A stretch of 64,000 nucleotides of DNA from Candidatus Uhrbacteria bacterium (GCA_016188475.1 JACPHT010000007.1:16467-80466); one strand, 5' to 3'; shown: positions 8,924 to 60,061, counted from the first letter of the stretch. Numbers and translations: made by a program. The notes: generated by a model from the letters alone, not told the origin.

Positions 8924-8931
8924 GATGAAAA

Positions 8932-8959
8932 CACTTAACTACCGATCGGGAGTTAAGTG
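8932..8959. repeat. Palindrome family copy 1 (CACTTAACTACCGATCGGGAGTTAAGTG).
   Basis: 28-bp dyad related to the copies at 9060-9093 and 33801-33834. Confidence 0.7.
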
Positions 8960-9059
8960 AAAATGAATAAATTAAAATCTGTTTCTCCACAATTGATATA
9001 TTGAGATAAATTATAGATAAAAACTTTAAATTATACTGTTAATTTGAAAATACACAGAA

Positions 9060-9093
9060 TCACACTTAACTACCGATCGGTAGTTAAGTGTGA
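9060..9093. repeat. Palindrome family copy 2 (TCACACTTAACTACCGATCGGTAGTTAAGTGTGA), a perfect 34-bp palindrome.
   Basis: Direct reading. It lies 80 bp past the dnaX stop. Confidence 0.75.
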
Positions 9094-9171
9094 TTAAAAA
9101 AACACCACCTTTCAGCGGCGGAATAATTTCAATTAAAAAAACAAACTTTTAATAATCGGGAATTCTTATTC

Positions 9172-18962: not shown

Positions 18963-19172
18963 AGGTAGAGAAGAAAGTTAGGAAGAAGTGAAAAGCAAGT
19001 GAAAAAGTGATTGAGTGATGGAGTGATAAATGCAGTCAAAAAACAATCCCAACTGGGATCATTCTATTTCTCCTGGGAGGTTCACACAATATCTTGTGGT
19101 ACAACTATATTTTATACCCCAACATATTGTGCGTCAAAGTTCCACTTATCCACAGCAAAACTCTTAAAACGT

Positions 19173-19266
19173 GTCATTGCGAGGAGGCCACTAGGCCGAC
19201 GAAGCAATCTCTGTATTTTCTCTAAAATTGCAGATTGCTTCGCTCACTACTGTCGCTCGCAATGAC
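19173..19266. repeat. Nested-stem element, copy 1 (GTCATTGCGAG..CGAAGCAATCTCT..GATTGCTTCG..CTCGCAATGAC).
   Basis: Related to the copies at 46041-46116 and 59963-60046. Confidence 0.75.
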
Positions 19267-19854: not shown

Positions 19855-19916
19855 AAGAAAGGTCTGAAAGGTCGGAGAGGACAGAAAGGTCTGAAAGGAG
19901 GGAAAGGTCTGAAAAG
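19855..19916. repeat. Seven tandem 9-bp units AAAGGTCTG in an intergenic spacer.
   Basis: Same family as the dnaX-internal repeat. Confidence 0.75.
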
Positions 19917-26698: not shown

Positions 26699-27820
26699 TC
26701 AGGATGGCAGTATTATTTCGATTTTTAAAATCAGATCTCTCAAACCTGTACCTTTTTTAGCTGAAATACAAATGGCCTTTCGATCACCCAAACGACTAAT
26801 GATGTCATTTTTCGTTGAAGAAGAGACCAAGTCAGTTTTATTGAGCACTAAAATTCGTGGTTTTTGATCCACTTCAAGTCGTTTCAAAATATCATCAACA
26901 CATCCAAGTTGTTGAAAAAAATGTTTATCGCTCGCGTCAGCGATATGCAAAAGCAAATCAGCGTCAACTGCTTCAGAAAGTGTTGAAGCAAAAGCGCTTA
27001 AAAGTTCTGGCGGAAGTTGTTTTATAAAACCGATCGTGTCAGAAACAAGCGCTACTTCTGCTTGTTTTGGTAAAAAAAGTTGACCGACACGTGTGTCAAG
27101 TGTTGCAAAAAGTTCATTGGCCGCGTATTCACGCCTACCAGTGAGAGCATTCAAGAGCGTTGTTTTTCCAGCATTTGTATATCCGACAATAGCGACTGTT
27201 TTAAGATTATTTCGTTTCCGTGACGCTCTCTGTAAATCACGACCTTTTTGATATGTTTCTAACTTATCTTTGATGCGACGTTCTTTTTCTTTCAAGTGTC
27301 TCTTCATGCGCTCAATGTTTGTTTCTCCAATTCCAATAGTTCCGATTCCTCCAGCTTGTCGTGATAACTCCATTCCCATTCCAAAAATCCGCGGACCCAT
27401 GTGACGAATGCTCGCGAGTTCGATTTCCAAACGCGCTTCTGTTGTTTTCGCATGTTTGGCAAAAATTTTCAAAATCAAATCGATTCGATCCCAAACTTGA
27501 ATTTTGTATTTTCGTAATTGTTCTGAAAGTTCAAAAGTTTGACGTGGTTTAAGTTGCGCGTTGATAATCAAAAATGATGCTCCAAGTTTTTTCCCTTCTT
27601 CACCGAGCTCAAGCACTTTTCCGATTCCAATATATGTTTTTGGATGCGGCGCAAATCGTTTCTGCCATTTTTTAACAATCACAATTCCCCCGTACGTATG
27701 TACAAGCTCTTCAAGTTCTTCCATCCGATCCATAGCATGCTCTCCAAGCATTTTCGGATGAATGAGATCAATTAGAATCGCTTTTTGTTGAGACACATTA
27801 ACTAAGCCGTGTTGTACCAT
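26699..27820 (-). CDS. hflX: GTPase HflX.
   Basis: HflX N-domain (PHPKTYIGIGK). G1 is GYTNAGKTTL, and G3/G4 motifs are present. Length is 373 aa. Confidence 0.85.
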   Translation of the reverse strand: MVQHGLVNVSQQKAILIDLIHPKMLGEHAMDRMEELEELVHTYGGIVIVKKWQKRFAPHPKTYIGIGKVLELGEEGKKLGASFLIINAQLKPRQTFELSEQLRKYKIQVWDRIDLILKIFAKHAKTTEARLEIELASIRHMGPRIFGMGMELSRQAGGIGTIGIGETNIERMKRHLKEKERRIKDKLETYQKGRDLQRASRKRNNLKTVAIVGYTNAGKTTLLNALTGRREYAANELFATLDTRVGQLFLPKQAEVALVSDTIGFIKQLPPELLSAFASTLSEAVDADLLLHIADASDKHFFQQLGCVDDILKRLEVDQKPRILVLNKTDLVSSSTKNDIISRLGDRKAICISAKKGTGLRDLILKIEIILPS

Positions 27821-27901
27821 GTCTCCTGGTCATCGGACTGTCGCCGCTGTTCCCTACGACATGTTAAAACCCGGCCCAATCAGAATCATTTCAATCATAC
27901 C

Positions 27902-27943
27902 AAAAACCGCCCCTTCGACTAGTTCAGGGCGGTTTGGTTTTTC
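27902..27943 (-). terminator. Rho-independent terminator of hup (CCGCCC...GGGCGG followed by TTTTTGG on the minus strand).
   Basis: Direct reading. Confidence 0.6.
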
Positions 27944-27950
27944 AAAAAAT

Positions 27951-28232
27951 TTATAGCACTGCGTCTTTTGCTTGCTTTGCAACACGGAATTTCACTACCG
28001 TCTTTGCTGGGATCGAAATGCTTGCACCTGTCATTGGGTTTCGACCTGTGCGAGCGGCTCGCTGTTTCTTAACGAGCTTTCCAAGTCCTGGGAGGTTGAA
28101 TTCCCCGCTTGATTTGACCTCTTTATAGGCCATTTCAACGAACTTATCCCATGCATCGGAAGCCTCTTTTTTGGAAGCTCCCATCATCTCGGCCAATGAA
28201 TTAACAAATTGGCTCTTGGTCATTTTTGCCAT
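27951..28232 (-). CDS. hup: DNA-binding protein HU.
   Basis: A 93-aa protein with the beta-arm RTGRNPMTGASISIPAKTVVKF, which matches the HU/IHF signature. Confidence 0.85.
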   Translation of the reverse strand: MAKMTKSQFVNSLAEMMGASKKEASDAWDKFVEMAYKEVKSSGEFNLPGLGKLVKKQRAARTGRNPMTGASISIPAKTVVKFRVAKQAKDAVL

Positions 28233-28310
28233 AAGTGTAAAAAACTTAAGTTTTACTAGAGCATTTTAACAGGGATAGATAAAAAAGGCAAGGGAATCAA
28301 AGAAAAAACG

Positions 28311-28691
28311 TCAATCTTTATGCACAGAGAACCATTCGCCTGCTTTTTGTATGTCATCCTTGATAATCTTTGCCATCTCTTCTTCTCCTGGAAATGGCAC
28401 TAAATCCCTTATTTTATTGCACAAAACAACGTTCAGATGTTTCCCGATAAGGTCCACATCTTTCTGATCAAGCAGATGAACCTCTATCTTTAGACGATAT
28501 CCGGTCCGTCCGTCATTTATGCAGATTAGCGATGGATAGAGTATTCCTTCAAGTTCAGTATTCCCAACATAAACCCCAAGAGCAGGGATCACCGCACCTT
28601 GTTCCACAGCTAAATTAGCTGTTGGACAGCCCAAACGTGTGGCCATTCCCTCCCCTTTTTCTACACGTCCGCAAAAACACAATTCACGCAT
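28311..28691 (-). CDS. Riboflavin kinase domain protein.
   Basis: GRV.KGEG..LGCPTANL flavokinase motif. Length is 126 aa. Confidence 0.6.
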   Translation of the reverse strand: MRELCFCGRVEKGEGMATRLGCPTANLAVEQGAVIPALGVYVGNTELEGILYPSLICINDGRTGYRLKIEVHLLDQKDVDLIGKHLNVVLCNKIRDLVPFPGEEEMAKIIKDDIQKAGEWFSVHKD

Positions 28692-28736
28692 ACTAATTTA
28701 ATCTATAATCACAAACAAACTTTGGCAAGTCTAATT

Positions 28737-29285
28737 TCATTTTGAAAAATTTTCCTTTATAAAACTCAACGCGCGTTTGAGAATAGGAATCATGTCAATA
28801 TAACTCGATTGTTTCATAACTGAATTGATTGGTACCCACTTTGCGTCAAGCGCGTGTTCTTTAGGATCAGGATGCAAATTCGCATTGCCTGGTGTTTCGA
28901 AAAGAAAAAAGTGAATATCCTTGTGAATCAACTTTCCTTTTTTGCTGAATTGATCGCGAAACCAAATATCAATCTGTCCAAGCTCCTCAAGCAATCGAAT
29001 TTGTTCAAGCCCAAGTTCTTCAAGTGTCTCGCGCGCCGCGGCTTCTTCAAGTTCTTCACCGTTTTCAACATGTCCTTTTGGAAATGTCCATTTGCCGTAC
29101 GAGTCTTTCATCATCGCAATCAAAAGTCGATTTTTTGAACGTTTCAAAACAATTCCACCTGCTGATTCTTCTTGTTCAACTGGTTCACGGCGTTTTATTT
29201 TCTGTTTTTTGTTCAACATATGAACCAAAGATAACCTTAATCGCCACATCAAGTTGTGGATCAATCCCTTGTTTGAATTCATCAA
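28737..29285 (-). CDS. NUDIX hydrolase.
   Basis: Nudix box GHVENGEELEEAAARETLEELG. The true start may be the internal MLNKKQK because the long form overlaps ctpA. Confidence 0.7.
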   Translation of the reverse strand: MMNSNKGLIHNLMWRLRLSLVHMLNKKQKIKRREPVEQEESAGGIVLKRSKNRLLIAMMKDSYGKWTFPKGHVENGEELEEAAARETLEELGLEQIRLLEELGQIDIWFRDQFSKKGKLIHKDIHFFLFETPGNANLHPDPKEHALDAKWVPINSVMKQSSYIDMIPILKRALSFIKENFSK

Positions 29286-30432
29286 GTGTGAAAGGAATTA
29301 CGATATCCGGAGTGATTCCTGTTTCGTGAATCGTGCGACCTTTTGGAGTATACCAAGTTGCTGTTGTAACTTTTACAGCCGACCCGTCGCTTAATTCGCG
29401 GTAATCTTGCACAGAACCTTTGCCAAAAGTTTGAGTACCGACAAGTTTAGCGAGTCCATAATCTTGCAGAGCACCAGAAACAATTTCAGAAGCAGACGCG
29501 CTACCTCCGTTCACCAAAACAACTGTTGGAACATCGGCGAGACGGGCCGCGCTCATACCTTTGAATGTTTGCGCATTCTCTTGCGATTTTTCAATCACGA
29601 CAGGTTGATAACCAACCCAAGCTGAAGCAATATCAATTGCTGATGTAAGAAGTCCGCCGGGATTGCTTCGTAAATCAAGAATTATTCCGCGAACGTTTTT
29701 TGTGAGTGTTTCCTGAATCGCATCCAAAAATAATTCTGAAGTGTCGTCGTTGAACGTTGAAATTGAAATTCGCATGATGTTATTTTCATCAATTTTCCAT
29801 TTTACAGAATCAATAACAATTTTTTCTCGAGTGATCGTAATTTCTGTAAGAGAATTCAAACCATTTCTACTAATAGACATTTTAACTTGTGTCCCGGCGT
29901 CACCTCGGATTTTTGAAACAGCTTCGTCAACACTCATGCCAAGTGTTTCAACTCCATCAATCATCACAATCCAATCACCTGGCTGAAGACCAGCACGAGC
30001 TGCTGGAGCATCATCAATCGGAGCGACAATAACTAATTTTTCATCTCGAATTCCGATTTCTGCGCCGATTCCACTGAAAGATCCATTCAAACTTGAAATA
30101 AATTCCTCTGCGTCTTTTGGATCAAAATAAACAGAATAAGGATCACCGAGTCCTTCAAGAATTCCCTTCAAAGCGCCGTAATATAAATCCTCATCAGAAA
30201 CTGGCTGTTTGTAATAAGAAGTTTTCGCAAAATTCCAAACATCCCAAAATTGCTTAAAATCAAGTTTGCTTTCATCTGCTGTCTGACCATTGGATTCAGT
30301 AACCAAATTTTTTGTTGAACGTGCGCCTCCGACAAAATATCCAATCACAAATGAAAACACTATGATAAGCGAGCTAAAAAGAAAAAGCACTGTGTGCGGA
30401 ATGTTCTTTTTTGGAAAAAAAATTGAAGGCAT
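29185..30432 (-). CDS. ctpA: Carboxy-terminal processing peptidase (S41 family) with a PDZ domain.
   Basis: PDZ motif (GLQPGDWIVMIDG). S41 catalytic region (ILDLRSNPGG, TFGKGSVQ). The start is reassigned to MPSIFFP at 30432. The longer ORF-track N-terminus is the translation of an inverted repeat. Confidence 0.75.
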   Translation of the reverse strand: MPSIFFPKKNIPHTVLFLFSSLIIVFSFVIGYFVGGARSTKNLVTESNGQTADESKLDFKQFWDVWNFAKTSYYKQPVSDEDLYYGALKGILEGLGDPYSVYFDPKDAEEFISSLNGSFSGIGAEIGIRDEKLVIVAPIDDAPAARAGLQPGDWIVMIDGVETLGMSVDEAVSKIRGDAGTQVKMSISRNGLNSLTEITITREKIVIDSVKWKIDENNIMRISISTFNDDTSELFLDAIQETLTKNVRGIILDLRSNPGGLLTSAIDIASAWVGYQPVVIEKSQENAQTFKGMSAARLADVPTVVLVNGGSASASEIVSGALQDYGLAKLVGTQTFGKGSVQDYRELSDGSAVKVTTATWYTPKGRTIHETGITPDIVIPFTLDEFKQGIDPQLDVAIKVIFGSYVEQKTENKTP

Positions 30433-30437
30433 GATAG

Positions 30438-30526
30438 AAAGTAGTATAGTAGAAAAGTAGTAAAGTAGCAAAGGGATTGTTATTCCTCTGCTATTTTGCT
30501 ACTCTGCTACTATTTAACTATGCCTA
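30438..30526. repeat. ~34-bp imperfect inverted repeat of AGTAG/GTAGCA words, filling the divergent ctpA/PEGA intergenic region.
   Basis: Direct reading. Confidence 0.55.
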
Positions 30527-31713
30527 AATTCTGGCGACCGTTGTTATTCTTCATATTTGTCGCCGCGTTTTTAATAAGCGCGCCGATTGTTGTTTTGTAT
30601 ACTGCTGGTTATCGCTATCAATTTGGAGCAAACAAAATTGTTCAAACTGGAATTTTGAATGTGGCGTCTTTTCCAAAGGGCGCTTCAATTTTTATTGATA
30701 ACAAAAAACAAAAAGAAAATACTCCTGCTGTAATTGACGACGTTATGCCAGGAAAGCACATAGTTCGAGTGCAAAAAGACGGTTATACTTCCTGGCAAAA
30801 AACACTCGAAATCAACAGCAAACAAACCACATTTGCAGATGATATTATTTTATTCCTTGAGCAAGCTCCTGAATCAACAACTATCGCGCTTACAACAGAA
30901 CCGGTTATTAACAAATCAACAAAACAATGGATATATATAACAGATGATGGTTCTTGGATTGAGGTTCTAATGAAAGAAAATTTTGACACACTACCAAAAT
31001 CACTTTTGCGTTTACCAAAACAAAAGTTACAAACATATTCTGTTAAATGGACTGACACAAACGAAATTTTGTTCATCGAAGCAACCGGAACAAAACAAGC
31101 AAAAACACTTCTCAACGTTAAAACAGATGAACAAAAACCATTTGATGAAAAACTTTCGGCGTTATCAATTAAAAATTTATCTGATCGAAGTGTTCTTTCT
31201 ATAAAAGACGAAAACAATGTTGCAAAAATTATCGCTTATCTACCTCTTGGCTCATATATTTTTGACAATTCTCCAAATCCATATTTTTTACTGAGTGACA
31301 CTTCACACAACAGACTTATTATTATTGATCCAACACAAACACAGGAAACTATACTTTTAAACGTTTCTGCAAATCAATGGAATTGGTCAAAAACCGGAGG
31401 CGCACTTCTGTTTAGTGACGGGTTTGATGTTGCAGTGTATTCACCTACCTCGCACAGACAAGAAACGTTAACGCGAGTAAGTGAACCAATAACTGGACTT
31501 AAATGGTATGAAAAAGGTTCGGTTGCAATTTTTGCTTCAAAAGAAGGAATAGAGGCGATTGAACTTGATCAAAGATCACAAAGAAATAAGACGACTCTTG
31601 TGGAAGAACCTCTTGTAAATCAATTTTGGTTTGAAAATGATGGTGAATGGATTGTGTGGACGATTGAGAAGGATTCTGGAGTTGAAGTGGTGAGAAAAAG
31701 ATTGCAAAAGTAA
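30520..31713 (+). CDS. Membrane-anchored PEGA-domain protein.
   Basis: N-terminal TM. PEGA-like block ASIFIDNKKQKENTPAVIDDVMPGKHIVRVQKDGYTSW. The start is reassigned to MPKFW at 30520. Confidence 0.5.
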   Translation: MPKFWRPLLFFIFVAAFLISAPIVVLYTAGYRYQFGANKIVQTGILNVASFPKGASIFIDNKKQKENTPAVIDDVMPGKHIVRVQKDGYTSWQKTLEINSKQTTFADDIILFLEQAPESTTIALTTEPVINKSTKQWIYITDDGSWIEVLMKENFDTLPKSLLRLPKQKLQTYSVKWTDTNEILFIEATGTKQAKTLLNVKTDEQKPFDEKLSALSIKNLSDRSVLSIKDENNVAKIIAYLPLGSYIFDNSPNPYFLLSDTSHNRLIIIDPTQTQETILLNVSANQWNWSKTGGALLFSDGFDVAVYSPTSHRQETLTRVSEPITGLKWYEKGSVAIFASKEGIEAIELDQRSQRNKTTLVEEPLVNQFWFENDGEWIVWTIEKDSGVEVVRKRLQK

Positions 31714-31720
31714 ACAAAAA

Positions 31721-31811
31721 GAGCGGTCGTACAATGTCTCCGGGCCAACGCCGTGCCTGCCTTTGGCAGGGACTCTTCGCCGCTGTCCCCTACGTCATGG
31801 TACAACCGCTC
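31721..31811. repeat. GC-rich inverted-repeat element. Arms are GAGCGGTCGTACAATG / CATGGTACAACCGCTC. The core is ATGTCTCCGGGCCAACG..GACTCTTCGCCGCTGTCCCCTACGTCATGG with a 20-nt hairpin insertion.
   Basis: Member of the family described in the findings. Confidence 0.7.
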
Positions 31812-31865
31812 ATTTATTATCTCTCAACTTCCTATTTGGTGGAAAGGGATGGAGGACGATATTCA

Positions 31866-32948
31866 CTACAATTCCACAAAACTATTGTCGCCAACAATCA
31901 ATCTGTGTCCGCTTTTTGGATGAGTGCGTGTGTAATCAACGAGTGTCGCGTTGAGTCCGATCAAACTGTTTACAATTCTGCGCGTTGTATCAATCGTCGC
32001 GCCATCAAAAATTATCGAATGCTCAACTTCTGTTTGATTAATTTTTACATTGTTGCCAATCGATGTATACGGCCCGATATACGAAGAAGTAATCTCACAA
32101 TTTTCTCCAATCACAACTGGCCCACGGATCAGCACATCTGCATTGATGCGTGTGTTTTTCCCAATACTTACCATTCCTTGAATTTGCACGCTCTCTGACA
32201 ATTCACACTCACAACAAAAATGCTCGCGTGGAAGATCATCCATGATAAGTGCATTGCCTTCAATCAAAGCGTCAGGCGTTCCGGTATCTTTCCACCAACC
32301 AGTAATTTCCTCATGTCCTGTTTTTCCATTTCTAATATACCAAGTAATGATGTCAGTGATTTCATACTCACCACGCGCAGATGGCTCGATCGTTTTAAAA
32401 GCTTCAAAAAAATTCTCATCAAATAAATAAATTCCAGTCACTGCAAATGGCGACGGTGGATTTTTTGGTTTTTCAATTGTTCTGACCAGCTGCCCTTCAG
32501 CACCAAATTCCGGAACGCCAAATCTCTGCGGATCTTTAACGCGCGAAAGCGCGATCATGCAATTGAGTTCTTCATTTTGAAATCGCTCGACAAATTTTTT
32601 TATACTTCCAAGAATAATATTATCGCCAAGAAAAAATAAAAAACGCTCGCCGCGAAGATATTCTTCAGCGTTTGCGACAACGTGCGCGAGACCTTTTGCG
32701 CCACCACGCTGTTCAACATATTTGATATGCGCTCCGTATTTTGAACCATCTCCAAGTGTATCAGCCATGAGCTGAACCTCACCTGGATTTACGTTGATAA
32801 TAATATCAGTGATTCCAGCGTCGATGATTTTTTTGATTGGATACAAAAGCATTGGTTGATTCGCAAGTGGAATCAAGTGTTTGTTACGCGTCCAAGTAAT
32901 TGGGCGCAAACGTGTGGAATGGCCACCGGCCGCGATCAGGGCTTTCAT
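31866..32948 (-). CDS. Sugar-1-phosphate nucleotidylyltransferase, long form (RmlA-like N-domain plus a C-terminal left-handed beta-helix).
   Basis: AAGGHSTRLRPIT motif. The C-terminal region has hexapeptide repeats. Length is 360 aa. Confidence 0.75.
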   Translation of the reverse strand: MKALIAAGGHSTRLRPITWTRNKHLIPLANQPMLLYPIKKIIDAGITDIIINVNPGEVQLMADTLGDGSKYGAHIKYVEQRGGAKGLAHVVANAEEYLRGERFLFFLGDNIILGSIKKFVERFQNEELNCMIALSRVKDPQRFGVPEFGAEGQLVRTIEKPKNPPSPFAVTGIYLFDENFFEAFKTIEPSARGEYEITDIITWYIRNGKTGHEEITGWWKDTGTPDALIEGNALIMDDLPREHFCCECELSESVQIQGMVSIGKNTRINADVLIRGPVVIGENCEITSSYIGPYTSIGNNVKINQTEVEHSIIFDGATIDTTRRIVNSLIGLNATLVDYTRTHPKSGHRLIVGDNSFVEL

Positions 32949-33682: not shown

Positions 33683-33800
33683 TAAATATTTACTCGCAAA
33701 ATTATCTGTGACTATGATTTGCATACAAAATATAAGTGACTATTTGAGAAGAATACTTGGAAATGACTGTTCGAAAATAACAGTTTAATGATTTTTGCAA

Positions 33801-33834
33801 TCACACTTAACTCCCGATCGGGAGTTAAGTGTGA
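33801..33834. repeat. Palindrome family copy 3 (TCACACTTAACTCCCGATCGGGAGTTAAGTGTGA), flanked by T-runs on both strands.
   Basis: Perfect 34-bp palindrome with the same arms as 9060-9093. Confidence 0.75.
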
Positions 33835-33952
33835 TAATATTTTTTGAAAACTAGGGAAATGTTCTATATCTTTCTGTTGACATCTTTTCGCGGGTGTGAA
33901 AAAATGTCAACAAGTCAACAGACGATAAATTAAAAATTTCAAAATAAATCTT

Positions 33953-46124: not shown

Positions 46125-47180
46125 CTAATAAACGAAATATCTAAGTATCTTCCACACAAAACACAATATAGGATTTCCAATCAATGTGACAATAGGATTG
46201 TTTGTTTCCTGATGTATTATTTTACAAGTGAATAATCGGACTATTTCTGCATCGCTAACTTTCCGAATCGAACGTGACTCGCGACGTTTTCGCAAAACGT
46301 ATGTCCATGATTTAGGACTCAACAAACTTGCATACACATAAATCTTTTGTTTAATCCAACCTCCTTTAATTGCAAACAAAAGAAGAGGGATTTCCATTAT
46401 TACCATGAACGGTAAAAGAATCAATAGTGTTGACCAATTCAGATGTGAAAAATGGACAAGCCAACGATTTCGTTCCATCCAAAAAAATTTCTGTATTGAT
46501 CGTTTGAATTCGTAATCATGAAATGAGCGAGATCGTAAAGATAAAACATTTTTATATCCAGCAAGACGAATTCTCCAACCAAGTTCTAAATCCTCGTGAT
46601 ACAAAAACAAAAACGGATCAAGAACACCAATTTTTTTTAGAACTTCAGCTCGATACAATACTGCCGCGCCACTTGCATACGCAATTTCTTCCCCATCACT
46701 CCGACACTCCGTTACTTCATCACTTTTCTCTCCATTATCCCTCACAAATCCGAATCCCAAAAAATGAACCATACCTCCTGTTGAATTAACAATGGCCGGA
46801 TGTTTCCAAAGCAACATGAGCGATTGCACTGATCCTATTTTTGAATCCGACTCTGCCAATGTTACAGCCTCTTTGATCGCGTCGGGATGCAATTTCAAAT
46901 CATTGTTGTGTAAAAAAACATAATCAGCGCCGTGGAGCAAAGCATGATTGATGCCTATATTATTACCTTCTGCAAACCCTAAATTTTTTCCATTTGGAAA
47001 AAACGTGATGTCACTTACGTTTAGCAGATATTCCTGACTGCCATCTGTTGATGCATTGTCAACAAAAATAAATTCCAAACTTTCACGAGGATAATTAAGC
47101 GCGCGTAGTGCGTTTAACACTTCGTCCAAATATCGTTTCCCGTTGTAAGAAAGATAAACAATCGCGACTTTTGGCATCAT
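46125..47180 (-). CDS. Glycosyltransferase family 2.
   Basis: AIVYLSYNG...FVDNASTDGS, a DXD-type GT-A N-domain. Length is 351 aa. Confidence 0.75.
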   Translation of the reverse strand: MMPKVAIVYLSYNGKRYLDEVLNALRALNYPRESLEFIFVDNASTDGSQEYLLNVSDITFFPNGKNLGFAEGNNIGINHALLHGADYVFLHNNDLKLHPDAIKEAVTLAESDSKIGSVQSLMLLWKHPAIVNSTGGMVHFLGFGFVRDNGEKSDEVTECRSDGEEIAYASGAAVLYRAEVLKKIGVLDPFLFLYHEDLELGWRIRLAGYKNVLSLRSRSFHDYEFKRSIQKFFWMERNRWLVHFSHLNWSTLLILLPFMVIMEIPLLLFAIKGGWIKQKIYVYASLLSPKSWTYVLRKRRESRSIRKVSDAEIVRLFTCKIIHQETNNPIVTLIGNPILCFVWKILRYFVY

Positions 47181-47539
47181 AAATTGTCCTCCTTTGTCCT
47201 CATTTGTCCTCCTTTGTCTTCTTCTTCCACTGCCAACTTTCTCACCAGCTTCGTTATCTCACGCTCAACATCTTCAATTTTTCCAAAAAGCCGAAATATC
47301 AAATAGAATAAAGCGATGAGCGAAATATAAATTACAAAATCCGCGCCGCGTCCTACTCCGACAAGTTTCGCAATAACATCAGTTGTTTGAGGTGATATCG
47401 CAACACCACCAACCACAATCCAAAATACAATCCAAAAAATAAGCCACGCGATCGAAAGTGCTCCTTGTCGAAACTGACGAAGCGTCCGCGAGATCGCGAA
47501 CAAAGCAAATAGAAGAATGAAGATTTGGATGAGGGACAT
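47177..47539 (-). CDS. DUF2304-like small membrane protein. Its C-terminal tail (EEEDKGGQ..) is encoded by the 10-bp repeat.
   Basis: Two TM helices. The context after a GT2 gene is typical for this family. Confidence 0.5.
   Translation of the reverse strand: MSLIQIFILLFALFAISRTLRQFRQGALSIAWLIFWIVFWIVVGGVAISPQTTDVIAKLVGVGRGADFVIYISLIALFYLIFRLFGKIEDVEREITKLVRKLAVEEEDKGGQMRTKEDNL
47186..47229. repeat. About 4 units of the 10-bp repeat GTCCTCCTTT. Same repeat as in dnaX.
   Basis: Direct reading. Confidence 0.75.
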
Positions 47540-47542
47540 AGG

Positions 47543-47577
47543 GAAAAATCTGAAAGGACCGAAAGGTCGGAAATGTC
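47543..47577. repeat. About 4 units of the 9-bp repeat GAAAGGWCN.
   Basis: Direct reading. Intergenic. Confidence 0.7.
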
Positions 47578-47588
47578 AAAAAAAACAA

Positions 47589-48254
47589 TTACTGTCGGAT
47601 GCGGCGCAAGACTAGTTTAACCAACGTTTTCAAACCAACTGTAAAACTTTGCCCTTTTGAAAGCGAGTAATCAGTGTAGATTGCCTTAATCGGAACTTCT
47701 GCCAAAGTGAGTTTACGACGTCTTGCTTCAGCAATCAATTCAGATGAAACTTCCATGCGATTTGTCTGAATTTCAATCTGTCGTATAGCGTACGCTGTGA
47801 ACGCACGAAAACCGGATTGACTGTCTGTTACCAGTGCTCCAAATAAAAAAAACGTAACAATGTTTCCAAGCACGTTTGCCGCTTGACGATACCACGGCAT
47901 ATCTGTGCGTTTGAGCATTCGCGAGCCGATAACAACGTCCGCTCCTTTTTCAATCGCTTGAATGAACAATGGAATTTCTGATGGATCATGCTGACCGTCA
48001 GCGTCAAGAGTGACAACAATATCTGCTCCAAGTCGTTTTGCCATTTCAAAACCAGTTCCGATTGAAGCGCCAAGTCCGCGATTGATCACATGGCTTACAA
48101 CTATCGCGTTGTGTGCTCGTGCGATTTCCGCAGTTCTGTCACTTGATCCGTCATCTACAACAATAATTTGATCAACAAATGGCCGAGTGTTCGTAAGAAC
48201 CTCGGCAATAGTTTTTTCTTCGTTGAAAGCTGGAATGATGGCGATTGTTCTCAT
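47589..48254 (-). CDS. Glycosyltransferase family 2 (dolichol-phosphate mannosyltransferase-like).
   Basis: IIPAFNEEKTI...VVDDGSSDRT...LDADGQHDP. Confidence 0.75.
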   Translation of the reverse strand: MRTIAIIPAFNEEKTIAEVLTNTRPFVDQIIVVDDGSSDRTAEIARAHNAIVVSHVINRGLGASIGTGFEMAKRLGADIVVTLDADGQHDPSEIPLFIQAIEKGADVVIGSRMLKRTDMPWYRQAANVLGNIVTFFLFGALVTDSQSGFRAFTAYAIRQIEIQTNRMEVSSELIAEARRRKLTLAEVPIKAIYTDYSLSKGQSFTVGLKTLVKLVLRRIRQ

Positions 48255-48308: not shown

Positions 48309-48384
48309 GGGAGTGGCTTGCGCCATGTTGTAGGGAACAGCGGCGACAGTCCGCTGGCCCGGAGACATGGTGCAAGTCACTCCC
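48309..48384. repeat. GC-rich inverted-repeat element in reverse orientation. Arms are GGGAGTGGCTTGCGCCATG / CATGGTGCAAGTCACTCCC.
   Basis: The core is GGAACAGCGGCGACAGTCCG, the reverse complement of the family core. Confidence 0.7.
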
Positions 48385-49400
48385 TACAAACTACTCAACA
48401 GTATCTTATTTGCCTTCATATACTCAATCGTTCGCGCGAGTCCATCCTCAAGGCGAACCAACGGAAACCACCCTAACTCTTTTGCGCGATCAATTCTAGG
48501 CAAAGAAAGTTCGGAAAGAAACACAAAACTTTCTCCTTCGGTTATTGTTGAAGTTGAATTTGTCATTTCAATAATCTTTTGCGCGACTTCCAACATTGAA
48601 TTATCAACGTCGCTTCCGATATTTGTCGGACCCGGATCTTGCGACGCGTCCATCAACCTAAACAAACAATCAACAACATCTGAAACATAAACAAGCGATG
48701 TTCGAAATTCTTTTCCTCCAAATAGAATAACTTCTTTCCCATCAAGCGCGTTCAAAATAAAATCTGGAATAAGGTGGCCGTCAAATAGTGGCATGCGAGG
48801 ACCATAAGTTCTGAAGATTCTCGCAATTCGAATGTCGATTCCGTGAACCTGACGATAAGTTTCAAACATTGTTTCAGAAAAACGCTTGCCCTCATCGTAA
48901 CACGCTCGAGGGGAAAGATGATTTACGATTCCGGTTTCTTCTTCACTTACACGCGGCTTCCCTTCTTTTCTTTCTCCATACACAACCGAACTTGATGCGA
49001 GTAAAATTTTCGCGCGATACTTTTTTGCAAGCTCAAGCGCATGATAAGTTCCGATAGAGCTTGAAAGAAGTGTTTGAATTTTATATTGATCAAATTGTTT
49101 GATTGATGTCGGACATGCCAAATGATAAATTTCTTGAATTCCCTGAAACGGCAACTTAAATGCCGCTAGCTCTGGAAATGATTCGAGATCAAACGGCTGG
49201 TTCACATCAAGTTTAATAAAACGAAAATTCGAATTTTGAAGAAGCAGATCGATATTCTTCGGATTGCTTGTTGCAAAATTGTCAACACAAATAACCCGAT
49301 GTCCGTCTTTGACCAATTGCTCGCAAAGAAAAGAACCAATAAAACCGGCTCCGCCTGTTATAAGAATGTTTTTATTAGAGAAAGAAGTTTGTACTGGCAT
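48384..49400 (-). CDS. NAD-dependent epimerase/dehydratase, UDP-glucuronate decarboxylase (UXS)-like.
   Basis: ITGGAGFIGS motif and YDEGKR (the YxxxK of UXS-type enzymes). Length is 338 aa. Confidence 0.75.
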   Translation of the reverse strand: MPVQTSFSNKNILITGGAGFIGSFLCEQLVKDGHRVICVDNFATSNPKNIDLLLQNSNFRFIKLDVNQPFDLESFPELAAFKLPFQGIQEIYHLACPTSIKQFDQYKIQTLLSSSIGTYHALELAKKYRAKILLASSSVVYGERKEGKPRVSEEETGIVNHLSPRACYDEGKRFSETMFETYRQVHGIDIRIARIFRTYGPRMPLFDGHLIPDFILNALDGKEVILFGGKEFRTSLVYVSDVVDCLFRLMDASQDPGPTNIGSDVDNSMLEVAQKIIEMTNSTSTITEGESFVFLSELSLPRIDRAKELGWFPLVRLEDGLARTIEYMKANKILLSSL

Positions 49401-49444
49401 ACATCGATATTATAATTGAATCCTTTGTTCTTATCCACTCTAAA

Positions 49445-49574
49445 CCATTGTTTGTTGTAGTAGAGACAGACGGGCCGACTTTTTCTTGGCCTTGTACTAA
49501 TATTGAGCAGTTGCACCATGTCTCCGTGCCAACGGACTCTTCGCCGTTGTTCACTCCGACATGGCGCAACCGCT
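49445..49574. repeat. Composite element made of a GTAGAGACAGACGGG..CTTTTTCTTGGCCTT module (also at 4083-4173) joined head-to-head to a GC-rich inverted-repeat element (arms GAGCAGTTGCACCATG / CATGGCGCAACCGCTC).
   Basis: Direct reading. Confidence 0.65.
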
Positions 49575-49651
49575 CATTTCAATCTTTTTTTTAGGCGCTA
49601 TGCAAGCGGGGTCAAGAGATCCAGCCCATGTCTTTTGTTAACCTAAAATTG

Positions 49652-51235
49652 TTAAAAATTCGCATCAAGTCCAGCCACTGACTTTTTCTCTGTTGCGACG
49701 TCGTAATCCGAAGTCGAATTGATCTTCAAACCAAACGTGTAATTTCCAACAAATGCGTCGGAAATATCATCGATCTGTTTGTTCCATGTTGAGCCATACA
49801 GTTCTGTTGCTATTTGTTCGGACGCTATCGCTCGCAGTTCTCCTTTTTTTGACACTGTATAAACAGTTGGCACTGTTTGAAACTTCACCATTTTTGTTCC
49901 AGGATGATATGTCACATTTTTCCCAAGTTGGAGTGAGGACATGAATGAAGAAGAAACTTCTTTCACGTTGTTGAAATTATCAAACCAAGTGAAAAAAACT
50001 TTATCGTTTGGAAATGAGTGACGCTTTCCGTCTGACGCATAAAAATAAACAGCTCGACATGGATCGTCCGCTTTTGTTTCTCCAACGCACGAGAGTTTTA
50101 TTAGAGAATTTTGTTCAACAGAAACAGCCGCGTTGCTTATATCTATTTTCGCAAACGATGGTGCCATAACGAACGCTTGCGCAATATTTAATCGCCCTGT
50201 TCCAACTTTTCCTTTTGCATCACCAGTTGAAATAACAGGACTCGCGGATAAACGTAAAATCGTTTCGATATCGCTCGGACCAAGAATCGGATAAGATGAT
50301 TTCAAAAGCGCGGCCGCTCCCGCAACCATTGGCACCGCCATTGAAGTTCCGGCCCAACCATTTGCATAATATGCAGACGAAAAATCTCTTTGATTGTCAT
50401 CTTGAAATGTTGTGCTAAAAATGTTTTCACCGGGCGCTGAAATGTCAGTGCATGTGGAACCGTAATTGGAAAAATCGGATTTCGTGTCGTTTTCGTCACT
50501 TGACGCAACTCCGATTACCCAGTCAGCGTTTCCTCCGTCACCATGACATGCTGGATAAATAGGTTTGTCATCAACGTTTATTCCACCACCCTTGGTGTTG
50601 CCGACCGCCGCGACAATTACAACTCCAGCTTCATACGCTTCTTTAATCGCATCCTTAAAAGATGGGTCAACTTCAAAACCAGTAAAACTCAAGTTGATTA
50701 CATTAGCTCCGTTTGCAACCGCATACTGAATTGCTTCTTTCGCTACAACAGATCCACCGATTCCGTTGTTGTCTAAAATTCTCAAATTCATCATCCTCAC
50801 ATGCCAGTTTATTCCTGCGATTCCATTTGCATTATTTCCAACAGCGCCAATTATTCCTGCTATAACAGTCCCGTGAGGAATGGCTGAATCGTCGTATGGT
50901 AAATTGAACGATGGAATTGGACTTGCGTCATCATCAACGAAATCATATCCGTTTACATCATCAATGTAACCATTTTTGTCATTATCAATTCCGTCACCAG
51001 CAGTTTCATCACCGTTTACCCAAACATTACCAACAAGATCGGGATGATCCATGTCAAAACCTGTATCAAGAATCGCGACAACAACATCTGTTGAACCAAT
51101 GTTGGAATCCCAAGCTTGTTCTAATTCCATTTTTTTCAAATACCATTGTTGTGAAAAATAAAAATCATTAGGTGTTAGTGCGAACGCTGGAAATGCAAAT
51201 GTTGCGCAAAAAAAGATCACGAAAAAATATCGCAT
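49652..51235 (-). CDS. Secreted subtilisin-like serine peptidase (S8) with a C-terminal ~140-aa conserved surface domain.
   Basis: Asp (VAILDTGFD), His (HGTVIAGI) and Ser (GTSMAVPMVAG) catalytic motifs. Signal peptide present. Confidence 0.85.
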   Translation of the reverse strand: MRYFFVIFFCATFAFPAFALTPNDFYFSQQWYLKKMELEQAWDSNIGSTDVVVAILDTGFDMDHPDLVGNVWVNGDETAGDGIDNDKNGYIDDVNGYDFVDDDASPIPSFNLPYDDSAIPHGTVIAGIIGAVGNNANGIAGINWHVRMMNLRILDNNGIGGSVVAKEAIQYAVANGANVINLSFTGFEVDPSFKDAIKEAYEAGVVIVAAVGNTKGGGINVDDKPIYPACHGDGGNADWVIGVASSDENDTKSDFSNYGSTCTDISAPGENIFSTTFQDDNQRDFSSAYYANGWAGTSMAVPMVAGAAALLKSSYPILGPSDIETILRLSASPVISTGDAKGKVGTGRLNIAQAFVMAPSFAKIDISNAAVSVEQNSLIKLSCVGETKADDPCRAVYFYASDGKRHSFPNDKVFFTWFDNFNNVKEVSSSFMSSLQLGKNVTYHPGTKMVKFQTVPTVYTVSKKGELRAIASEQIATELYGSTWNKQIDDISDAFVGNYTFGLKINSTSDYDVATEKKSVAGLDANF

Positions 51236-51258: not shown

Positions 51259-51492
51259 CCTTGAGCTTGTCGAAGAGACAAAATTTGGTTAAATCATCTA
51301 CAGCCTTCGACAGGCTCAGGCAATAACTATTCATAACGCATTACCACCTTCGACAGGCTCAGGCAATAACTATTCATAACGCATTACCACCTTCGACAGG
51401 CTCAGGCAATAACTATTCATAACGCATTACCACCTTCGACAGGCTCAGGCAATAACTATTCATAACGCATTACGGCTCAGGCAATAATTTGC
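51259..51492. repeat. Tandem array of about 4.5 units of a 43-bp repeat CCTTCGACAGGCTCAGGCAATAACTATTCATAACGCATTACCA. A degenerate reverse-orientation copy precedes it.
   Basis: Direct reading. Units begin at 51304, 51347, 51390 and 51433. Confidence 0.85.
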
Positions 51493-51513
51493 AACATGCA
51501 AATTGTTTCTATT

Positions 51514-53553
51514 CTACCAGATCGCACAGGTTGCACCGAATCTGTTTGACAATGTAAATGGAAAAAATCCACCAAGAACAACGCCGTTATTTTCAAAAAT
51601 TCTCAAATGAGGACCGGCTTTTAACAAAGGCATTGTGTAAATTTCAGCGCGACCGTTTTGATCAATATCTCCTGAACACACTTTTGCTCCGACACTCGTT
51701 TTTTGTTGATAAGGCATGAAAAATGTCTCGCGTGTTCCTGTTGGTGAATATGTCTCGATAAACGAAACTTTTTTGATGAGCGAGCTAACTACGATTTCAT
51801 TTTGCCCATCGCCATCAATGTCGCTGGCTGAAATGGTTTGTCCTTTTGAATCTTTTGAGAGACTAAACTCTCGAACATAACGACCGTCGCCATCTGTAAT
51901 TCGAATCAAGGATTCATTTTTTTGTTGAAGCAAAAATATAAGTTCATTTGACGCGTCTTCATCCATATTCGCAATCGCAAGTTGAAGAACTGAATCAACA
52001 CGCCCAAATGGACGCAACATACCCTGAAGCTGTCCATAACGATTAAACATTCGCACATCTCCAATGCCTCCAGACTCTGAAACAACAAAAATTTCTGCGA
52101 TTCCATCCGCGTTCACATCACCTGAAAACACCAAAATTCCACCGCGATCCGATGGATCATAAGCAAAAAACTGCGAAAGCAATTTTCCATCTAAATCAAA
52201 AACTCGAACTTGTGGACCGCCGCCTTTCCTCGCGCCAGTAATAATTTCTTCTTTTCCATCGCCATTAACATCAGCCATTGCGAGCGAAACACCACCGCGA
52301 AAATTCTTGTTATAAGCCAAAAACGACCCTTGTTTTTCTCCGTGAGCGTTAACGCGGATGACGCGAGGTTCAGTTCCAGGACCTTCTGCCACAACAAGAG
52401 AACGAGAATGGTCTGTGTTTGTTTTGACAGGTGCGATTCCTTGACCTGTTGCAAAAACTTTCGCGGCTTGAAGCGCGTTCGCAATGTTCAATCTTCCGGA
52501 GCCAAGACGTTTGCGAGCTTCAACTGAAGTTTCCTTCACTGGATCAACAGAAAGTTTGAGAGACAAACGGATCTGTTCCGGAGTTAGCGATGGAAACGCG
52601 GATTTCAAAAGAGCAGCCGCGGCGCTGACCATTGGCGCGGCGATTGATGTTCCTTCCCATGGCGAACCATACGAAGTCGAGGTCAAAAGATTTGACGCGT
52701 CATTGTACACGCTCGAAAAAATGTTTGTGCCAGGAGCGCTTAAGTCAGTACATCTTTCTCCAAAATTAGAGAACGTCGCTTTTTGGTCATTTTTATCTGT
52801 TGCCGCAACACCGATTACAATTTCTTTGTTCAAAAGTGAATCGTAACACGCTGGATAACTTGGTTTTAGATTCACATCGCGATCGCCATTTCCTACTGCG
52901 GAAACCACCACAACACCTTGATCAACCGCCCACGCAATCGTCTTTGCAAAATTCATGTCAGATTGATCAGACGTAAAACTCAAATTGATAACTTGCGCGC
53001 CGTTTTTTACAGCGTATTCAATTGCTTGTCGCACATCATAAGTTGATCCAGCGCCTTTTTCGTTTAAGATTCGAAGTGGCATGATTGAAATTTTTTGATT
53101 AATACCAGCGATTCCGATTCCATTTTTTGTTTCAGCTCCGATAATTCCAGCGATCGCTGTTCCATGCGAAATGATTGTGTCATTGAACTCCTTGCTTATC
53201 ACAGGAGACGGGTCAGGATCACTGTCAACAAAATCCCATCCGATCGTGTCGTCTTCATATCCATTTCCGTCATCGTCTTTATGATTGTTCGGGATTTCCA
53301 ATTTATTGCGCCAATACTGATTTTCAAGGTCTTCATGATCAAGATCAAATCCGGCATCAAGAATCGCGACAATAACATCAGTAGAGCCAATGGTTTCCTG
53401 CCAAGCAAGCGAAACACCAATTTTATTCAAATACCATTGTTCATTGTAAAACGGATCGTTTTGAGATTTGGCAGATAAATGAAAAAAAGGCGTAAAAATC
53501 ACGCTAATTAGAATTAAAAAATAAAAACTGAATGCAAAAACAGACGCTTTCAT
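51514..53553 (-). CDS. Subtilisin-like S8 peptidase fused to C-terminal FG-GAP/VCBS repeats.
   Basis: S8 D/H/S motifs (AILDAGFD, HGTAIAGI, GTSIAAPMVS). FG-GAP-type repeats (DVNGDGKEEI, DVNADGIAEI). The start is reassigned to MKASVFAF at 53553. Confidence 0.8.
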   Translation of the reverse strand: MKASVFAFSFYFLILISVIFTPFFHLSAKSQNDPFYNEQWYLNKIGVSLAWQETIGSTDVIVAILDAGFDLDHEDLENQYWRNKLEIPNNHKDDDGNGYEDDTIGWDFVDSDPDPSPVISKEFNDTIISHGTAIAGIIGAETKNGIGIAGINQKISIMPLRILNEKGAGSTYDVRQAIEYAVKNGAQVINLSFTSDQSDMNFAKTIAWAVDQGVVVVSAVGNGDRDVNLKPSYPACYDSLLNKEIVIGVAATDKNDQKATFSNFGERCTDLSAPGTNIFSSVYNDASNLLTSTSYGSPWEGTSIAAPMVSAAAALLKSAFPSLTPEQIRLSLKLSVDPVKETSVEARKRLGSGRLNIANALQAAKVFATGQGIAPVKTNTDHSRSLVVAEGPGTEPRVIRVNAHGEKQGSFLAYNKNFRGGVSLAMADVNGDGKEEIITGARKGGGPQVRVFDLDGKLLSQFFAYDPSDRGGILVFSGDVNADGIAEIFVVSESGGIGDVRMFNRYGQLQGMLRPFGRVDSVLQLAIANMDEDASNELIFLLQQKNESLIRITDGDGRYVREFSLSKDSKGQTISASDIDGDGQNEIVVSSLIKKVSFIETYSPTGTRETFFMPYQQKTSVGAKVCSGDIDQNGRAEIYTMPLLKAGPHLRIFENNGVVLGGFFPFTLSNRFGATCAIW

Positions 53554-53613
53554 ATAGCGTCTGCATTGTAACATTGGTATCTTGTTTTCTCCAGATTCTG
53601 TATGGCGGTAGTT

Positions 53614-53688
53614 AAAGAGCGGTAGCACTATGTCTCCAGGCCATCGGACTGTCGCCGCTGTTCCTTTCGACATAGTGCTACCGCTCTT
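53614..53688. repeat. GC-rich inverted-repeat element. It has perfect 19-bp arms AAAGAGCGGTAGCACTATG / CATAGTGCTACCGCTCTTT, and the core is TCTCCAGGCCATCGGACTGTCGCCGCTGTTCCTTTCGA.
   Basis: Direct reading. Confidence 0.8.
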
Positions 53689-53750
53689 TGCTGTTATTTC
53701 GGTTTACCGGCAACCAATGTTAGTCCCCTTTGGAATTGGTACGACACTTG

Positions 53751-55214
53751 TTAAAAATTCGCATCAAGTCCAGCCACTGATGTTTTCTCTGTTGCGACGT
53801 CGTAATCTGAAGTCGAATTGATCTTCAAACCAAACGTATAATTTCCAACAAACGCGTCGGAAATATCATCGATCTGTTTGTTCCATGTTGAGCCATACAG
53901 TTCTGTTGCTATTTGTTCGGACGCGATTGCGCGTAATTCACCCTTCTTTGATACTGTATAAACAGTTGGCACTGTTTGAAACTTCACCATTTTTGTTCCA
54001 GGATGATATGTCACATTTTTCCCAAGTTGGAGTGAGGACATGAATGAAGAAGAAACTTCTTTCACACTGTCAAAGTTATCAAACCATGTAAAAAAAACTT
54101 TGTCGTTTGGAAACGCATGACGCTTCCCGTCTGACGCATAAAAATAAACTGCTTTACATGGATCATTTATTTGAGCGTTTACTTGACAGGCGAGTTTGAT
54201 GAGATTCCCAGCCACAGCTTCAGCCGTACCCCCTTCGACTGGCTCAGGGGATATTACTGTATCTACTGGCGTTTCCGTAACCGCTTCCCATTTCAATATC
54301 ACTGACTGATAATCATCTTTTGTGCCAGCAATCCAAAGTTCGTTCGTTGATGGATAATAAACATCACGGAGTGTGAAATTTTGCGGTGTATAATCTGTTG
54401 CTGTCCAAGTTTTTCCTCCATCTTGCGATCGAACAATAATTTTGTCGCCGACAATCACAATATCATCGCCAACTGCTTCAATGTCATAAAGCGTTTGTGT
54501 TGAAAGTCCGCTTACTGAAATCGTTGACCACGAATATCCGCTATCTGTTGTTTTTCGAATCGTTCCATTTTTTCCAACAACATATCCAGACGAAGAACTT
54601 GTAAACCAAACAGCAAGCAAATCTGTGTCAGTCGCCTTTCCTTTATTTGTCCACGTAATTCCAGAATCTGTTGTTTTTAACAATATCCCTTCTGAACCGA
54701 CAACCCACGCTGTTCCGTCACCACGATCTTGCACACCGAACAACGCAAGTGTCGTATTCGAAGTTGTTGTGTTCCATGTATCTGTATTTGAACCGTAATA
54801 TAAAATCCTGCCGTTTGTTCCAACAATGTACCCATGTTCAGAAGAAGCATCAATATCATAAAAAGTATCAGTGATTTCAAGTTTCCTTTGACTCCACGTC
54901 AAACCATTATTTGTTGATTCACGCAAGGTTCCACCTTCTCCAACCGCTCGGACTGTTGTTCCTGTTGTTTCAATATCTTGCCAATAAACATTTCCGCTTT
55001 GATCATACACAGTCCAAGTGTTTCCATTGTCAGTTGAACGAATGATGTTGCTTCCGTTTCCAACAGCAAAATAATTATCACCGGCTTTTGTAATACCTTG
55101 CAGACCTTGAATTGTTCCTTTTTCTTTTTCAATCCAACCTGAAGCGTGAGTCGGAAGAGAGATAAAAAACAATAAGACAAAAATCATTGATCTAATAAAA
55201 AAACGGTTCTTCAT
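53751..55214 (-). CDS. Secreted BNR/Asp-box repeat beta-propeller protein. It carries the same C-terminal ~140-aa domain as the S8 peptidase at 49652-51235.
   Basis: Multiple S/T-x-D-x-G-x-T-W boxes (STDNGNTW, STNNGLTW, TTDSGITW, TTDSGYSW, SQDGGKTW). Signal peptide present. Confidence 0.65.
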   Translation of the reverse strand: MKNRFFIRSMIFVLLFFISLPTHASGWIEKEKGTIQGLQGITKAGDNYFAVGNGSNIIRSTDNGNTWTVYDQSGNVYWQDIETTGTTVRAVGEGGTLRESTNNGLTWSQRKLEITDTFYDIDASSEHGYIVGTNGRILYYGSNTDTWNTTTSNTTLALFGVQDRGDGTAWVVGSEGILLKTTDSGITWTNKGKATDTDLLAVWFTSSSSGYVVGKNGTIRKTTDSGYSWSTISVSGLSTQTLYDIEAVGDDIVIVGDKIIVRSQDGGKTWTATDYTPQNFTLRDVYYPSTNELWIAGTKDDYQSVILKWEAVTETPVDTVISPEPVEGGTAEAVAGNLIKLACQVNAQINDPCKAVYFYASDGKRHAFPNDKVFFTWFDNFDSVKEVSSSFMSSLQLGKNVTYHPGTKMVKFQTVPTVYTVSKKGELRAIASEQIATELYGSTWNKQIDDISDAFVGNYTFGLKINSTSDYDVATEKTSVAGLDANF

Positions 55215-59771: not shown

Positions 59772-59962
59772 AATAAATTGAACTGTTTCTCAGATTTGGG
59801 CTCTGAGGGGCCGTTAGGATTTAATTACGCAACGTAGCCTCTCGGCTTCGACCTTTCAACGCGCGCGAATTAATAAGATTACGCTATTCGAACGAGCTTT
59901 TACGCGCGTTCAAACAGTGAGCCAGGGTTCTTTCGCTGTGGAAAGAAACCCGACTCAAGTGT

Positions 59963-60046
59963 GTCATTGCGAGACGATCGAATGATCGTCGAAGCAATCT
60001 CTGTACTTGGATTGCTTCGTCGGCCGTACAGCCTCCTCGCAATGAC
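59963..60046. repeat. Nested-stem element, copy 3.
   Basis: GTCATTGCGAG-ACGATCGAATGATCGT-CGAAGCAATCTCT..GATTGCTTCG..CCTCGCAATGAC. Confidence 0.75.
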
Positions 60047-60061
60047 ACGATAGTCTATTGC

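Follow-up and report, generated by a model that had tools for sequence, protein, structure and literature searches.

A dispersed palindromic repeat of ~75 nt with a near-invariant core and co-varying arms in Candidatus Uhrbacteria-like CPR bacteria

Introduction

The Rickettsia palindromic elements (RPE-1 to RPE-8) lie in frame inside genes that are unrelated to one another (Ogata et al, 2000, via PMC10969869). Both they and the element presented here are dispersed palindromes in a small genome, found between genes as well as in frame within housekeeping genes that are left intact; for neither has a transposase been identified, and copies of both are kept across species (PMC10969869). RPEs measure ~100–150 bp and ~40% of the RPE-1 copies are intragenic (PMC10969869), whereas the present element is 75 nt long and has ~8 of 105 copies within genes. 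Given the differences in size and host, the two would not be expected to share sequence homology. Its host belongs to the CPR/Patescibacteria, which are unrelated to Rickettsia, and its near-invariant asymmetric core, hypervariable co-varying arms and G·U/A·C strand asymmetry further distinguish it from RPEs. Judged by analogy, the Rickettsia palindromic element is the closest behavioural analogue.

Two other groups of repeats invite comparison. With REP/REPIN-RAYT systems and the hairpins of IS200/IS605, the element shares short imperfect palindromes, high copy number and the lack of a target-site duplication, as well as a hairpin that forms from one specific single strand and in which unpaired bases are conserved. 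The HUH/Y1 enzymes (IS200/IS605 TnpA, RAYT) use ssDNA hairpins as substrates, are strand specific and leave no target-site duplication. Like REPs, which form BIMEs, the element clusters with other small repeats in mosaics. However, it has no GTAG-type foot, and no RAYT or TnpA was found in the loci collected here; REPs are extragenic, whereas copies of the element also occur in coding sequence, and REPINs conserve their arms, whereas the element conserves its centre. Classical MITEs (ERIC, Correia/NEMIS, BOX, RUP, Nezha) are likewise small and non-autonomous and form a hairpin when transcribed, and some, such as ERIC and Anabaena MITEs, are now and then found within genes, fused in frame (PMC10969869). 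In contrast to them, the element has neither target-site duplications nor conserved terminal inverted repeats that match an insertion sequence, no parent insertion sequence is known, and its conservation is central, not terminal. Because target-site duplications and a GTAG-type foot are lacking, it should not be filed as a classical MITE or as a REP. Full-text literature searches brought up no description of interspersed palindromes from Uhrbacteria, CPR or Patescibacteria.

Results

The DNA under study is one continuous stretch of 64 kb from Candidatus Uhrbacteria (hereafter the window) with a GC content of 40.8%. Its gene content is typical of CPR/Patescibacteria and comprises PEGA-domain proteins, S8 peptidases with FG-GAP repeats, a VirD4-like protein, and sugar-nucleotide and glycosyltransferase genes. 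A preliminary description of the window had reported at least five copies of an inverted-repeat element with a GC-rich core, and the five it listed were all found where it had placed them. The exact 35-nt core occurs at 27819(+), 48334(−) and 53630(+), that is, three times in the window but in none of 100 shuffled versions, and the sequences at 31720–31811 and 49503–49577 are diverged versions of it. Two covariance models, one built from the five window copies and one from 107 matches (105 distinct copies), each searched with the filters disabled, retrieved exactly these five copies from the 64 kb; the next matches were ordinary hairpins (E ~0.05–1). The core, for which 60–70% GC in a ~40% GC genome had been claimed, has 63%, and whole copies range from 55 to 64%. 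Each copy folds as one long imperfect hairpin (z-scores between −2 and −10). Pattern matches, shuffles, covariance models, GC content and folds thus agree that the repeat is real.

Copy c1 (27806..27875, +) has a T-type core in the orientation of the preliminary description (hereafter the described orientation) and is flanked by hflX and by an HU-like gene with its terminator. Its 5′ arm contains, at 27820–27818 on the − strand, the first ATG of the HflX ORF (26699–27820, −). Copy c2 (31720..31811, +) separates a convergent PEGA-domain gene from a nucleotidyltransferase gene and carries, within its core, a private hairpin of 20 nt, CCGTGCCTGCCTTTGGCAGG (31751..31770, +; alignments leave ~1 nt of ambiguity at the boundaries), which is absent from the orthologous copies L100:3660 and L052:8585. 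In copy c3 (48309..48386, −) the described orientation is on the − strand; the core is a mosaic of a G-type pair and a T-type loop, and the stem base overlaps the TAG stop codon of an epimerase/dehydratase ORF (48384–49400, −). The two gene contexts described earlier, the hflX start and the stop of a UXS-like gene, were accordingly seen at c1 and c3. Copy c4 (49503..49577, +) carries an A-type core with a compensated pair, GTGCC...GTTCAC, and copy c5 (53613..53690, +), located between two genes for secreted proteins, has a T-type core on a perfect 21-bp stem. The CATG that had been assigned to the base of every stem is present in only three copies; c5 has TATG/CATA instead, and c2 has AATG on the 5′ side. 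ORF 31734..32198 begins at the ATG of the element, another such ATG opens the ORF-track entry 53630–53821(+) in c5, and c5 also gives ORF 51514–53673(−) a spurious N-terminal extension. Short-read contigs of the same organism from Logan (L001–L003) that align to window positions 27833–31766 end exactly inside c1 and c2, and identical short contigs are present in the Logan assemblies SRR12113422, SRR12113401 and SRR12113390. A genomic repeat is expected to behave in this way, and the contig ends show that the repeat fragments assemblies of these genomes.

Copy c4 is embedded in a second conserved multi-copy module (49428–49497 and 49594–49656), which is non-coding, recurs in the window at 4060–4195, has the consensus ...GTAGAGACAGACGGGCCGACTTTTTCTTGGCCTT...AGGCGGGGTGCCCACACCCCGC...GCGGGGTCAAGGGACCCCGCCTATGTCTCTTGTG, ends in inverted repeats and has no match in Rfam. 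About 20 of the 75-nt copies, c4 among them, are inside or adjoin this module, and it also occurs without the 75-nt element (L060:2003–2141 and L077:3087–3236). Other repeats were noticed in the window. One intergenic family with the core CCTTCGACAGGCTCAGGCAATAA is found at 11438, 26593, 51281–51513, 55691, 55817, 55972 (inverted) and 61625, including four tandem 43-nt units downstream of an S8 peptidase gene. The palindrome ACACTTAACTnCCGATCGGnAGTTAAGTGT, which looks terminator-like and may be a further repeat family, has three copies (8931–8972, 9059–9102 and 33791–33843). Imperfect palindromes GTGTCATTGCGAGG...CCTCGCAATGACAC at 19170–19209 and 59961–60049 contain the motif CATTGCGAGG, which also forms the outermost arms of some 75-nt copies of other genomes (L050:513 and L110:9245). 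Tandem repeats of 9–10 nt (GAAAGGTCn and TTGTCCTCC units; 9563–9723, 19857–19914, 47174–47231 and 47543–47591) occur in both orientations at several gene ends. A 300-nt segment is duplicated, with 95% identity, at 49649–49948 and 53748–54047 and encodes a C-terminal domain shared by two secreted proteins that are neighbours, an S8 peptidase (49652–51235) and a BNR-like protein (53751–55214). The ORF for class II ribonucleotide reductase (14661–18962, −; 1433 aa) harbours an intein, which bears a LAGLIDADG homing-endonuclease domain.

A degenerate pattern was scanned over 185,579 species genomes, and true matches were restricted to DeMMO2_27 (JAGVFR01) and to Candidatus Uhrbacteria NC_groundwater_1523 (JACQXU01) and NC_groundwater_1837 (JACRJU01), none of which is the genome of the window. 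Loci from these three MAGs contributed 33 copies. Some 14 other pattern matches (Streptomyces, Muricomes and others) are as many as chance alone would yield, and the model gives them no score. A scan of metagenomes (JGI contigs, Ga…; ENA contigs, ERZ…, named Hain-) added 66 loci with 81 further copies, and no viral contig matched the element. The full alignment holds 105 distinct copies from the three Candidatus Uhrbacteria/CPR MAGs and from metagenome contigs, several of which are named as groundwater. The family is restricted to one clade of Candidatus Uhrbacteria-like CPR bacteria. Some copies form close pairs, either inverted (119 nt apart; L075:8637–8904) or in tandem (23 nt apart, one copy being degenerate; L077:470–635); where other loci have inverted copies close together, the genes that separate them are recR, prfB, cysS and similar ones. 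Truncated or decayed copies are present as well, for instance L017:6820 and L100:1.

The unit of the family is the whole hairpin, mostly 75–78 nt long. It consists of a basal stem of 15–25 bp, a 3 × 3 internal loop, a 3-bp helix, a bulge, a 6-bp helix with one variable pair, and a small apical loop. The central ~45 nt, ATGTCTCCGGGCCAnCGGACTnnTCGCCGnTGTTCCCTnCGACAT, are asymmetric and almost invariant, whereas the columns of the outer arms are hypervariable. The arms had been regarded as copy specific, but they are diverged versions of a single arm (consensus AGAGCGGTTGCACC...GGTGCAACCGCTCT) that differ by paired changes. Among the 105 distinct copies, 94.1% of the cells hold standard pairs, compared with 32–54% in slid controls, and both sides have changed in 21 of the 27 pairs; the observed values were reached by none of 500 shuffles. 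An independent MAFFT alignment of 36 copies gave the same picture (91% paired; double-sided change in 20 of 30 pairs). Three core haplotypes recur in all genomes, namely CCATCGGACTGTCGCCGCTG, CCAGCGGACTCCTCGCCGCTG and CCAACGGACTCTTCGCCGTTG, in which the variable pair is U·C, G:C and A:U, respectively, and mosaics of them exist, c3 being one. The 75- and 76-nt forms, about equally common overall, differ by a frameshifting indel.

In relatives, but not in the window, some copies are in frame within genes. In five organisms an in-frame copy of 75 nt is part of tgt (Pfam TGT, 471 bits), where it reads ...RSSGTMSPGHRTVAAVPSDTAPPLL-FGIVQGG.... According to an alignment with solved Tgt structures, the insert is absent from the Tgt of T. 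maritima (2ASH) and of E. coli and falls between a helix (...RSKKAF) and a strand (LFGIVQGG); if translated, as the intact frame implies, it would add ~25 residues at what the alignment suggests to be a loop of Tgt. The arms of the five tgt copies are almost unrelated in sequence, and each pair is nearly perfectly complementary. An HD-domain gene (L076) carries an in-frame copy in the opposite orientation, ...TSEGTAATVRWPGD..., and its orthologue L096:10561–11871, 87% identical, is an intact ORF in which 32 codons, those of the core and of both arms among them, are missing. A further ~20 residues of the L076 protein, PKGDYPPTPMLRRAGRGLPAL, are likewise absent from the L096 orthologue and may be another inserted repeat. 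In a third gene, for an O-antigen-ligase-like membrane protein, the copy (...RRREQRRQSDGPETW...) is read in a third frame just before the Wzy_C domain. The three host genes thus use three different frames and both orientations, and translation of the core consensus is open in all six frames. The Met-Ser-Pro-Gly ORF starts had been called spurious, which holds for the window but not for relatives, where the frame belongs to an intact tgt. The core is thus literally coding sequence in relatives, an outcome that the preliminary description had named as one that would refute it; the cause, however, is in-frame insertion into unrelated genes.

All intragenic copies (~8 of the 105) are of the 75-nt type and stop-free, which fits read-through translation and neither splicing nor bypass. 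In this they differ from the GC clusters or "byp" elements of yeast mitochondria, which are GC-rich hairpin repeats in an AT-rich genome with some copies in coding sequence; the ribosome passes over byps, and these do not have to be in frame. A coding origin of the CCn-GGn-CAn pattern, with codon wobble at the variable positions, was considered and rejected because these positions are either bulged or paired in the inner stem, the 75- and 76-nt variants differ in reading frame and the hosts use three frames.

It is on these grounds extremely unlikely that the copies are a family of stand-alone structured RNA genes or a conserved peptide-coding module, despite the strong covariation and the ATG-led Met-Ser-Pro-Gly frame that is read through in the intact tgt ORF. 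Some of the ~100 copies are inside coding sequences, host proteins use three frames on both strands, and the two length variants are out of frame with one another. A six-frame peptide search of 5.8 billion proteins returned 86 candidates with one weak match, the peptides being too short for significance. At the gathering score, Rfam matched the tRNA at 8815 in the window and not the element; a permissive search (53560–53740, E ≤ 10) yielded only generic miRNA-precursor and hairpin models far below that score. No catalytic-core motif of self-cleaving ribozymes (hammerhead, twister, HDV and similar) was seen when both strands were inspected by eye, and neither a promoter nor the flanks are conserved.

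The element mostly occupies short intergenic spacers, and its flanks are simply A/T-rich and not conserved. Its orientation is random with respect to the majority gene strand of the locus (42:42; this strand served as a proxy for the direction of replication) and also between co-directional genes (31:27), and convergent contexts (19) outnumber divergent ones (8). Target-site duplications, which the preliminary description had proposed to look for, were not detected: direct repeats at the boundaries (k = 2–5) were no more frequent than in shuffled pairings. The same is true of the cognate transposase it had suggested, which turned up neither in the window nor among the 845 kb of collected loci. 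Pfam searches of 51 window ORFs revealed no transposase, integrase or reverse transcriptase domain, the ORFs that lie between close inverted copies encode no transposase, and tblastn with approximate query sequences of IS200, IS608 and RAYT (Y1) gave nothing at E < 0.1 in the 845 kb. The arms are inverted repeats but variable in sequence; the outer stem columns are the most variable of all, and no invariant motif corresponding to a REP-type foot, GT(A/G)G, was found there. A scan for promoters and terminators showed no consistent site at the copies.

The placement at gene ends, the excess of convergent over divergent contexts, the very stable hairpins and the copy that supplies the first ATG of the hflX ORF are what one would expect if the element acted in cis as a hairpin in host mRNA (as a stabiliser, RNase processing site, terminator or translational element) and were selected for its effect on the flanking genes. 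This explanation is nonetheless quite unlikely. Orientation between co-directional genes is random, none of the five window copies was flagged as terminator-like, U-tracts or T-runs are absent from the 3′ flanks of the element, copies are tolerated inside coding sequences, and structure alone would not need a conserved asymmetric core of 45 nt. A further argument against it came from the strand on which the hairpin is preserved.

In the described orientation, A·C combinations clearly prevailed over G·U among the non-Watson-Crick cells (124 versus 29; binomial p = 3e-15, the counts being phylogenetically non-independent), and they did so in most stem columns. An A·C in this orientation means a G·U wobble pair on the complementary strand. 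Consistently, the complementary strand folds more stably in 104 of 106 copies, with a mean gain of 7.6 kcal/mol, much of which is due to the shared core. For c4, the predicted RNA fold is −49.8 kcal/mol for the complementary strand and −38.7 kcal/mol for the described one (DNA: −28.0 and −21.5), and the complementary strand forms an uninterrupted 19-bp stem. The A·C:G·U ratio was 31:5 where the described strand is the mRNA sense, 33:8 where its complement is, and 34:4 for copies between convergent or divergent genes. Hence, the same strand is preserved irrespective of which one is transcribed, contrary to what a hairpin acting in mRNA would require. Since the copies are randomly oriented, a mutation bias linked to replication or transcription cannot produce an asymmetry that follows the polarity of the element. 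Some of the asymmetry may have descended from founder copies. Read most simply, the data mean that folding is required of one fixed strand, the complement of the core as described, whatever host transcription does. A·C:G·U ratios, fold energies and the boundary test together reveal what is looked for in a single-strand substrate, namely one strand that forms the functional hairpin and no target-site duplication.

Fifteen orthologous pairs, among them window copies c1, c2 and c5 versus copies at L052, L100 and L071, allowed rates of change to be compared. The 200-nt flanks were 85% identical, the arms 83% and the core 93%; the core thus evolves more slowly than the flanking genes, whereas the arms change about as fast as the flanks and still remain complementary. 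Between c5 and L071:3930 the core is identical, and two compensatory double substitutions separate the arms. Most copies are old and have been kept in orthologous positions in different species; c1, for example, is retained as L052:12921. Some sites differ, however: nothing corresponding to the copy at L052:11944 is present in the window at the orthologous site near 28692–28736. Both cases of presence and absence (the HD gene of L096 and L052:11944) involve extra sequence and therefore give no exact boundaries. Different core haplotypes are found at orthologous sites (L041/L050 and L055/L105), and the same arms are combined with different haplotypes (L007/L034), which suggests that exchange between copies may be behind the haplotype swaps and mosaics.

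These swaps would also follow if only the core were mobile and landed in the loops of pre-existing, unrelated hairpins, which is close to the picture drawn in the preliminary description. Some arms do look unrelated to the consensus (L045, L030, L006 and L092:2390), and some outer arms share the CATTGCGAGG motif with another palindrome family of the window. Yet a single consensus fits most arms, paired substitutions accumulate stepwise between orthologous copies, no arm hairpin without a core was found in the 845 kb of collected loci, and the empty allele of the HD gene lacks arms and core together. The arms are thus not independent terminal repeats around a separate core, and mobility of the core alone is very improbable.

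The slow evolution of the core points to a function at the level of the host or to conversion between copies, and not to purely selfish decay. It also makes a domesticated DNA signal a serious alternative: a site, in double- or single-stranded DNA, for a chromosome-organising, replication, repair or DNA-uptake protein, kept by purifying selection with no current mobility. The retention of copies across species, a strand asymmetry that is independent of transcription, and the failure of searches of the window and of the 845 kb to reveal a transposase would all suit such a signal. Against it, presence and absence differ between close relatives, truncated and decayed copies exist, insertion into coding genes is hard to explain as the placement of a signal, and orientation is unrelated to the majority gene strand. 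On balance, we consider domestication without mobility unlikely.

Discussion

The element is probably a dispersed, non-autonomous palindromic repeat of ~75 nt, of the RPE/REP kind, that is maintained via a strand-specific single-strand hairpin bound by a trans-acting factor. As judged from its sequence and distribution, it would be copied and maintained, now or formerly, through a single-stranded hairpin intermediate, the conserved bulged core of which would be read by a trans-acting protein. The likeliest intermediate would be ssDNA, as for HUH/Y1 enzymes (IS200/IS605 TnpA, RAYT), which are candidate enzymes here; a substrate of this type is proposed because target-site duplications are lacking, one strand is favoured and transcription makes no difference. 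Complementarity of the arms would be kept by selection passing through G·U(T) intermediates, possibly assisted by hairpin-templated correction. Exchange between copies may account for the three core haplotypes and their mosaics. Effects on neighbouring genes, such as mRNA hairpins and added start codons, would be a by-product.

Of the two affiliations that had been offered for the element, the MITE/REP-like one stands insofar as a dispersed multi-copy hairpin is present in several genomes and breaks their assemblies, but target-site duplications, a transposase and a core separate from the arms are not part of it. The other, a structured non-coding RNA family, is disfavoured by random orientation, non-conserved flanks, the lack of an Rfam match and the copies inside coding sequence.

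A further reading is possible, though not probable: the element may be a single-strand hairpin signal under purifying selection, one fixed strand of which is read by a lineage-specific protein, and which doubles as a source of new surface loops of enzymes. This protein could be a domesticated HUH enzyme or a factor of replication, repair or DNA uptake. If this were true, tolerance of translation in all six frames would repeatedly give rise to new surface loops in essential enzymes of minimal genomes.

Small CPR/Patescibacteria genomes can thus carry about one hairpin repeat per 10–15 kb, beside several other small repeat families. The copies break up metagenome assemblies, give rise to false ORFs and start codons, and have become part of enzymes such as Tgt. 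A frozen asymmetric core, fast co-evolving arms and a strand signature that is blind to transcription make the family an unusually clean data set on how palindromic repeats are recognised and maintained, and the core sequence provides a concrete handle for finding the protein responsible.
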